From assembly GCF_003334335.1 (NCBI RefSeq), contig NZ_QOWQ01000192.1: a stretch of 420 bases of DNA. The stretch is one strand, 5' to 3'. Source of the DNA: Escherichia coli. GTDB lineage: Bacteria > Pseudomonadota > Gammaproteobacteria > Enterobacterales > Enterobacteriaceae. Shown here in pieces: positions 1 to 420 of the stretch. The notes under the pieces are model-generated. The model was not told where the DNA came from, did not search any database, and saw nothing but the letters and a program-made list of their open reading frames with translations. The number at the start of each line of letters is the position of its first letter. Positions within the stretch are counted from its first letter, which is position 1. Position numbers and translations under genes: made by a program.

Positions 1-137
1 ACAACGGATTTATCAGCAACGGAAATGGCCTGGAAGCTGTGGGAGCTTATGGGGGAGGTGTATTCGAACCGCTGGACCCAGAAGAACGGGGCCGCACCTT
101 CGAAGCTCTGGATTGCCCAGATTGGCGCGATGACTGA
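1..137 (+). CDS. 3' end (44 codons) of an upstream gene, 5'-partial; codon phase begins at nt 3, stop TGA 135-137. Product not recognised; by position ahead of a P-like loader it may be the replication initiator (lambda O-like), but that is inference from synteny only.
   Basis: Frame 3 is open from the window edge to TGA 135-137. Codons are mostly the common enteric ones (ctg, gaa, ccg, cgc, acc, ttc, ggc) and G-rich at first positions. The peptide is protein-like: a Gly-rich stretch followed by an acidic tail. The competing frame 2 is full of rare aga/agg/cga/cgg codons. Frame 1 over the same region has 4 Trp in 43 residues, all arising from frame-3 CTG-GAN or GTG-GGA pairs, which marks it as off-frame. 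Confidence 0.5.
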   Translation, partial: NGFISNGNGLEAVGAYGGGVFEPLDPEERGRTFEALDCPDWRDD

Positions 138-420
138 ACAGCAAATCCGGCTGGTCTGCCGTCAGTGCATGGACCGCTGCCGGGCGGGTGAAACGTGGCC
201 CCCGGACCTGGCTGAGTTTGTTGCGCTGATTTCGGAGAGTGGGGCAAATCCATTTGGTCTTACGGTGGATGCCGTGATGGAAGAGTACCGGCGCTGGCGC
301 AATGAATCCTGGCGATACGACGGGAGTGATAAATACCCGTGGCCTCAGCCTGTGCTGTACCACATCTGCCTCGAAATGCGTACCAGAGGGATTGAGCGCC
401 AGATGACGCAGGGTGAGTTA
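130..420 (+). CDS. Lambda P-family replication protein (DnaB helicase loader), 3'-partial; first 97 codons in window. Start ATG 130 is the preferred call, with an upstream start in the same frame as the alternative.
   Basis: Frame 1 is open to the window end. The translation matches recalled lambda P motifs in order: MTEQQ vs TMEQV, PPDLAEFVAL vs PSPGQFVAWC, VDAVMEEYRR vs VDMVYEYCRK, YDGSDKYPW..LYHI vs YPDAESYPW..HYWL, and TQGEL vs TDAEL. ATG 130-132 sits exactly where both other forward frames terminate (TGA 131-133 and TGA 135-137), typical of a coupled gene boundary. No clear Shine-Dalgarno precedes it. Confidence 0.75.
   Translation, partial: MTEQQIRLVCRQCMDRCRAGETWPPDLAEFVALISESGANPFGLTVDAVMEEYRRWRNESWRYDGSDKYPWPQPVLYHICLEMRTRGIERQMTQGEL

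Follow-up and report, generated by a model that had tools for sequence, protein, structure and literature searches.

The locus analyzed here raises the question of where the gene for a phage helicase loader begins, and of which protein is encoded by the DNA that this gene shares with its upstream neighbor. The window, that is, the whole stretch of 420 nucleotides from Escherichia coli that was analyzed, can be read in frame 1 of the plus strand without a stop codon across all 420 bases (140 codons). Stop codons are present in frames 2 and 3, and frame 3 is closed by the TGA at positions 135-137. Two genes are annotated here in RefSeq: a gene for a "DnaT-like ssDNA-binding domain-containing protein" in frame 3, ending at position 137, and a gene for "replication protein P" in frame 1. 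A first-pass annotation of the same DNA had confined the P-like feature to positions 130-420. These limits proved too narrow, since frame 1 is open throughout and both the family alignment and the purifying selection extend upstream of them, the latter from about nucleotide 9. The loader ORF fills the entire window; its start very probably lies 72 nt farther upstream, and the ATG at position 130 is interpreted as an internal Met68. It is quite probable that the window represents a lambda P family gene in a lambdoid, Rac-like prophage, that this gene encodes a long form of 220 amino acids (aa), and that its overlap with the upstream gene is divided in function.

Family of the encoded protein and its prophage

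Lambda P-type loaders of lambdoid prophages are textbook biology. The assignment of the window to a gene of this family, made by sequence and model comparisons, can be regarded as sound because of the profile matches in Pfam, PHROG, and PDB together with the lambda P matches found by Foldseek. The product of the 140 codons matched the Pfam family Phage_lambda_P (PF06992; E 2.1e-9; aa 32-139 aligned to model positions 29-137), as well as PHROG 109, "P-like helicase loader" (E 2.8e-42; aa 4-140 aligned to profile positions 32-173). For the 97-aa fragment alone, for which the first-pass annotation had expected the Pfam match, the corresponding E-values were 4.7e-9 and 3.9e-34. For the 220-aa long form, PHROG 109 was matched with an E-value of 6.6e-63, positions 18-236 of the 236 profile positions being covered. 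Precomputed PF06992 assignments were found in nearly all homologues. A profile built from 33 homologues found lambda P among the PDB sequences (8v9t_V, E 7.1e-7; profile positions 64-189 aligned to P residues 76-202), with no detectable similarity upstream of lambda P residue ~76.

Three lambda P motifs had been noticed in frame 1 from the sequence alone, and all of them are present: FVA at nucleotides 217-225, YPW at 334-342, and TxxEL, here TQGEL, at 406-420. When the full ORF was compared with lambda P by BLASTP (E 3e-6; 25% identity over 113 aa), EFVAL was paired with QFVAW, KYPWP with SYPWK, and MTQGEL with LTDAEL; for the N-terminal ~70 residues no similarity was detectable. The loader residues P186, Q191, P201, and K215 are also aligned with lambda P. 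The 97-aa fragment in BLASTP against lambda P gave only a misaligned and non-significant match (E 3.4), and a single-sequence phmmer search of PDB sequences with the window product gave no match, lambda P being reached by the family profile only. No match to NCBIfam was found for the window product or its parts, and none to AAA+ families in Pfam or PHROG was found for the window product.

In the Foldseek search of PDB with an AlphaFold model of moderate confidence (mean pLDDT 68), the top five matches were lambda P chains (9oa1 and 9oa2; E 4.6e-5 to 4e-3, probability 1.0). The matches to 9oa1 comprise 194-215 aligned columns; full-length TM-scores of the lambda P matches are only 0.35-0.43. 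Superposition of the model on the crystal structure of lambda P domain III (8v9s) gave a TM-score of 0.85 and an rmsd of 2.0 Å over 74 columns. Lambda P (PDB 9oa1, 9oa2, 8v9s, and 8v9t) and the loader belong to the same Pfam family, PF06992. Pfam, PHROG, the PDB profile match, Foldseek, and the RefSeq name all agree with the earlier proposal of a lambda P-like helicase loader. The remark that accompanied this proposal, namely that the gene is expected biology and not novel, is fair for the gene itself: its kind is known, and the exact protein is already named "replication protein P" in RefSeq.

The window is identical (100%) to positions 8001-8420 of a chromosomal prophage of E. coli JNEC-KY176, referred to below as L001. 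Sequences matching the window with at least 80% identity were found in 1253 of the 5426 complete E. coli genomes, that is, in about a quarter of them. The upstream part of L001 contains genes for an integrase, an excisionase, an exonuclease, DicB, and RelBE, followed by the repressor and cro-like HTH genes and YdaT. The genes following YdaT are those for the initiator, P, DUF1627, an Ea22-like protein, HokD, DUF968, RusA, and DUF1133. This locus is a lambdoid, Rac-like prophage replication module, with the initiator gene directly upstream of P and lambdoid and Rac-like prophage genes around the pair, as had been proposed for the window from its sequence.

The closest known counterpart is the Rac-type ydaU/ydaV pair of phage Rac-SA53 (KU052037) and of the PPompW prophages in Shiga-toxin E. 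coli, with ~91% nucleotide identity to the window. This pair shows the same gene order (repressor, cro-like, YdaT, initiator, P-like), the same long ORF, and an overlap of 212 nt; its annotation uses the short start and reads either "putative replication protein" or "phage replication protein." No experimental characterization of the ydaU/ydaV pair was found in the literature searched.

Several other features of the prophage were observed. The gene adjoining the initiator upstream (L001 6606-7031) is called "toxin YdaT family protein" in the annotation, and the PHROG family that it matches is 163, labeled "CII-like transcriptional activator" (E 2e-46); the two labels are in conflict. Toxin-antitoxin genes for RelE/RelB and HokD, as well as dicB, are located at L001 5239-5720, 12656-12811, and 3376-3564. 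Several genes of the prophage are frameshifted or partial, for instance those for DUF4752 and DUF551, and the prophage may therefore be partly defective. Many prophages of this kind are defective.

Start of the loader gene

In the identical genome, the loader ORF occupies L001 7929-8591 on the plus strand, starting 72 nt upstream of the window and ending 171 nt downstream of it, so that window positions 1-420 correspond to codons 25-164 of 220. The ATG at L001 7929 is preceded, at a distance of 6 nt, by AAGGGGGT, a Shine-Dalgarno site. Conservation of this start was analyzed in an alignment of 54 distinct relatives with 87-100% nucleotide identity. The ATG is kept in all 54; the G-run before it is invariant at four bases (7919-7922), with variation at the fifth confined to a single relative. 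A scan of viral contigs provided only relatives with at least 90% identity, usable for the polymorphism test and not for diversity, and more distant loci were therefore fetched singly. Nine diverse loci were compared, originating from Escherichia, Klebsiella, Salmonella, Enterobacter, Symbiopectobacterium, and metagenomes; in each of them, the long-form ATG follows a GGAGG-like site at a distance of 5-8 nt. In all nine, the loader lies in the same relative frame, and its overlap with the upstream ORF is 113-224 nt.

Substitutions among the 54 relatives show the frame-1 pattern well upstream of the annotated start. Of 24 substitutions in window positions 9-129, 20 affect a frame-1 third position (binomial p 6.6e-7); counted as synonymous to non-synonymous changes, they amount to 19:5 for frame 1 and to 3:21 for the initiator frame. 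For the non-overlapping part of P, the same measure gave 100:40 for frame 1 and 14:126 for the initiator frame, matching the pattern at positions 9-129. Conservation over larger distances points in the same direction. In 33 long-form homologues with 45-90% identity, W38, W49, K52, N53, G54, P57, and W61, all upstream of Met68, are invariant, and frame-1 identity across seven diverse loci is 0.61 upstream of Met68 vs. 0.60 in the rest of P. The P-family alignments also pass upstream of position 130, that of PHROG 109 beginning at window aa 4 and that of Pfam at aa 32. A minus-strand ORF at positions 13-363 (116 aa) was considered as coding and rejected: its codon boundaries coincide with those of frame 1, so the variable sites fall on its first positions.

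The domain layout can be compared with that of lambda P, in which domain I (residues 1-29) is a disordered lasso, domain II spans residues ~30-119, domain III residues ~120-192, and domain IV (193-233) forms a C-terminal lasso; it is domain II that keeps the pentameric loader ensemble assembled on DnaB (PMC12661323). In the AlphaFold model, residues 1-27 of the loader have a pLDDT below 50, and helices are predicted at residues 30-53, 59-66, 70-85, 94-106, 113-131, 141-157, and 161-180, followed by a terminal helix at 203-216. The region equivalent to domain II corresponds to window positions 16-258, as judged from these helices, the alignments, and the published domain limits (PMC12661323). 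It includes the WPPDLAEFVAL block, and its predicted helices are encoded by nucleotides 16-87, 103-126, 136-183, and 208-246. The first two-thirds of the domain III equivalent, including YPW and TQGEL, correspond to positions 259-420 according to the superposition on 8v9s and the profile alignment. In the model, the 220-aa form would thus reproduce the four-part layout of lambda P: a disordered N-terminus is followed by two helical domains, with a tail helix at the C-terminus. The two proteins are also similar in length (233 aa for lambda P and 220 aa for the loader) and share the predicted order of segments. Two of the predicted helices, 30-53 and 59-66, lie upstream of Met68, and a 153-aa form would therefore lack both of them, together with the domain I equivalent.

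Database entries for this loader family are inconsistent in their starts, giving proteins of 220-223, 189, 180/181, 153, and 146 aa, that is, at least five different versions; some NCBI entries with the 220/221-aa form already exist. Two further frame-1 ATG codons of the window were considered as starts. The ATG at positions 25-27, Met33 of the long form, is not a start, because it is replaced by ACG in 48 of the 54 relatives. The ATG at positions 49-51 is Met41 of the long form and the start of the 180/181-aa entries. A 180-aa loader beginning there, as annotated in Salmonella, Citrobacter, and Klebsiella, would reduce the overlap with the initiator gene to ~90 nt. Met41 is nearly invariant, GGGAG is found just upstream of it, and many database entries have chosen this start. 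Nevertheless, only 3 nt separate GGGAG from this ATG, and Met41 lies in the middle of the predicted helix 30-53. Moreover, constraint on frame 1 is already visible before this codon: 7 of the 9 variable sites in nucleotides 9-48 are frame-1 third positions, where changes are synonymous in frame 1, and W38 together with the AW..W block upstream of Met41 is conserved across genera. The long-form ATG with its Shine-Dalgarno site is kept in 9/9 diverse loci, and Met41 as the main start appears improbable. A minor isoform starting at this codon is possible.

The annotation of the window itself (WP_000139447.1) fares somewhat worse. It describes a 153-aa loader beginning with the ATG at positions 130-132, coupled to the initiator stop through an 8-nt overlap (ATGACTGA), with the upstream part of frame 1 left untranslated. 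The position of this ATG over the TGA at 135-137 is a classic coupling arrangement, and the codon is kept in 54 of 54 close relatives. However, no Shine-Dalgarno match was found upstream of position 130, and in most distant homologues Met68 is replaced by Leu and the initiator stop is located elsewhere. The selection signature of frame 1 reaches upstream to about nucleotide 9, in a region where the initiator frame has 21 non-synonymous vs. 3 synonymous substitutions, and the 153-aa product is without the domain I equivalent and without two domain II helices. We therefore consider this start very unlikely.

The loader most likely comprises 220 aa; its start, as we infer from sequence conservation, is the ATG that precedes the window by 72 nt. 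Translation of the first ~27 codons is deduced from the conservation of this ATG with its Shine-Dalgarno site and from the fact that no other start codon is conserved. These 27 codons, with 6 synonymous and 15 non-synonymous substitutions in the loader frame, are not under purifying selection there. The start choice of the NCBI pipeline, ATG 130 here and ATG 49 in other genera, also counts against the long form. The RefSeq model probably cuts one third of the protein, including helices equivalent to domain II, and the 220-aa form is the one to use for expression or modeling of the loader. Beyond the known gene, the inconsistent database starts and the conserved overlap constitute a modest addition.

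Division of the overlap between two reading frames

The initiator CDS (L001 7100-8137, plus strand) enters the window in frame 3 and ends with the TGA at 135-137, so that window positions 1-137 are read in two frames. With the long-form start, the out-of-frame overlap of the two genes comes to 209 nt, in which the first 67 codons of the loader share their DNA with the final 69 initiator codons, in the +1 frame. In lambda, the overlap of O and P is only 4 nt. Gene overlaps of more than 100 nt are frequently put down to faulty annotation. A literature search of incomplete coverage found no description of this long overlap or of replication pairs of the ydaU/ydaV type.

Within the overlap, selective constraint is transferred from the initiator frame to the loader frame at window positions 1-11 (about nucleotides 5-12), as seen from the per-site substitution table. 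Substitutions upstream of this point are synonymous when read in the initiator frame, and those downstream of it when read in the loader frame. Thus, in L001 7932-8008, which encodes the first 26 loader codons after the start, the ratio of synonymous to non-synonymous substitutions is 12:9 in the initiator frame and 6:15 in the loader frame, and 13 of the 21 substitutions are located at initiator third positions. Fisher tests comparing the two halves of the overlap gave p-values of 9.5e-4 and 3.5e-3. The hand-over coincides with the start of the first predicted loader helix (residue 30, nucleotide 16) and with the end of the low-confidence N-terminus (residues 1-27).

The tail of the initiator downstream of the hand-over was also considered as independently conserved, in particular its segment EPLD..DCPDW. 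This candidate was rejected, since its cross-genus and synonymous-codon identities match those of non-overlapping controls. Cross-genus identity of the last ~40 initiator residues (window positions 9-134, frame 3) is 0.36 vs. 0.30-0.34 for the non-coding frame elsewhere in P, and the identity of synonymous codons in the overlapping part of the loader is 0.45 vs. 0.41-0.43 in controls. EPLD..DCPDW is a frame-shifted shadow of RW..KNG..LWIAQIG in frame 1. In the Symbiopectobacterium prophage (L088, 1786-2613), the initiator ORF, of the DUF1376 type, has its stop codon 113 nt beyond the loader ATG, shortly past a conserved helix described below, and is without the ~40-residue tail found in the other loci.

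The overlap is divided as follows, in terms of its own substitution pattern. Its first ~80 nt are probably selected for the conserved C-terminal helix of the initiator, encoding the variable N-terminus of the loader only incidentally. Its last ~125 nt (window positions 9-129) are probably selected for the first two helices of the loader and encode, again only incidentally, an initiator tail that appears dispensable.

A sharp switch of constraint between frames would also be expected for a programmed +1 ribosomal frameshift near nucleotides 5-12 producing an initiator-loader fusion, and in PHROG 15931 (482 positions) the initiator indeed matches positions 1-347 and the loader positions 279-482; this explanation is nonetheless highly improbable, as the geometry requires +1 or -2 slippage instead of the common -1, no slippery or stalling motif was found at the switch, where the nucleotide sequence is not conserved between genera, neither the conserved ATG with its Shine-Dalgarno site nor the open loader frame over the preceding 25-30 codons in every lineage would be needed for a fusion, and the mixed PHROG is more simply explained by an artifact of clustering or by rearranged genes, P0106 for example, that bridge the two families.

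Two separate genes sharing a long segment read in two frames are the preferred reading. The overlap is a clean, testable, and real case of selection passing from one frame to the other midway. The corrected gene model and the well-supported long out-of-frame overlap are the modest added value of this analysis.

Initiator, origin, and loading of the host helicase

The first-pass annotation had placed the loader downstream of a presumed initiator. An initiator gene with iterons is indeed found directly upstream, in keeping with this proposal; the two genes overlap and are not simply adjacent. For the upstream CDS, the matches were PHROG 1408, "replication initiation protein" (E 1e-118), and the DNA-binding domain family DnaT of Pfam (E 1.7e-16). 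An O-like initiator had been anticipated, and the protein found is instead of the DUF1376/DnaT-domain type: no O-like initiator family was matched by it, the only matches being PHROG 1408, 3729, and 3992 and Pfam DnaT. O-like partners of the same loader subfamily are found elsewhere, namely in L004 (at the N-terminus) and in L089. Of the ren and nin-region genes expected downstream, ren is absent; the genes for DUF1627, an Ea22-like protein, HokD, DUF968, and RusA follow. Thus, in lambda the partner of P is O, whereas here it is a DUF1376/DnaT-domain protein and no ren gene follows.

The anticipated upstream iterons were found, and they lie within the initiator gene. Iteron-like direct repeats of the GTCACGAC type with 10-nt spacing are present there in nine copies on one strand. 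They form two clusters, one at L001 7228-7287, about 770 nt upstream of the window, and one at 7509-7557, about 450 nt upstream. Their density is nine copies in 330 nt, compared with 15 copies in the whole 16.4-kb locus. The GTCACGAC clusters are presumably the origin of the prophage, placed like the lambda ori inside O. The lambda P gene and the loader gene therefore share their position directly downstream of an initiator gene carrying origin iterons.

The segment of the initiator that is under selection within the overlap contains a helix-like sequence, SRAVQEIRAAREQWER, which recurs in all nine loci although their initiators are of differing families, among them the DUF1376/DnaT and HTH/O-like types. 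Helices of this type were found at the ends of PHROG 1408 and 3729 proteins with DnaT domains, of PHROG 1032 proteins with an O-like N-terminus, and of O-like PHROG 391 proteins. A motif (S/N)RAVQ.IRAAR..W.R is located at the end of the initiator at L001 7950-8005 and at the equivalent place in L004, L005, L006, and L088-L091. The C-terminal helix is a candidate contact for the loader that may be inherited together with it. Its constant company with this loader subfamily makes it a concrete candidate for an initiator-loader contact.

A tentative extension of these observations, for which we see a minority chance, is that the ~210-nt overlap is a conserved and functionally partitioned double-coding segment rather than an accident of annotation, that the C-terminal helix of the initiator docks the loader, and that the pair moves as one recombination module. 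If so, the overlap would weld the docking helix to the loader gene and keep the pair together during swaps of the DNA-binding domain of the initiator. The N-terminal "lasso" of the loader would then be encoded wholly within the codons of the docking helix.

By analogy with lambda, the initiator would bind the iterons within its own gene, and the loader would be recruited to the origin by contact with the initiator, for which the C-terminal helix is the candidate. The loader would bind the host DnaB hexamer through domain III as well as the C-terminal lasso, as suggested by homology to the lambda P structures (PMC12661323). It would then open the DnaB ring and deliver DnaB to the phage origin. 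This DnaB binding and origin loading, as well as release by DnaK/DnaJ/GrpE, are proposed from homology. The same job of opening and loading the DnaB hexamer is carried out by E. coli DnaC. DnaC, however, is an AAA+ ATPase unrelated in fold and sequence, whereas the P-family proteins have no nucleotide-binding domain. Lambda P and DnaC occupy overlapping sites on DnaB via lasso elements (PMC12661323).

Rearranged versions of the loader gene were also observed. P0106 (333 aa) is a DUF1376-P fusion that arose through a deletion reaching from the DnaT domain to mid-P; in P0032 (291 aa), DUF1627 is fused to P; and P0006 (184 aa) is a P protein with an internal deletion. These three are signs of prophage decay at the replication locus. 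PHROG 15931, annotated as "unknown function," appears to merge the two overlapping genes, probably via fused or frameshifted members. Finally, this E. coli-type replication module was found, with 91.6% nucleotide identity, at positions 9461-9878 of PP818812.1, a sequence named Actinobacillus phage vB_Apl-pPE4. This identity is unexpectedly close for a phage of Pasteurellaceae, and a mislabeled host, contamination, or a recent transfer are possible explanations.
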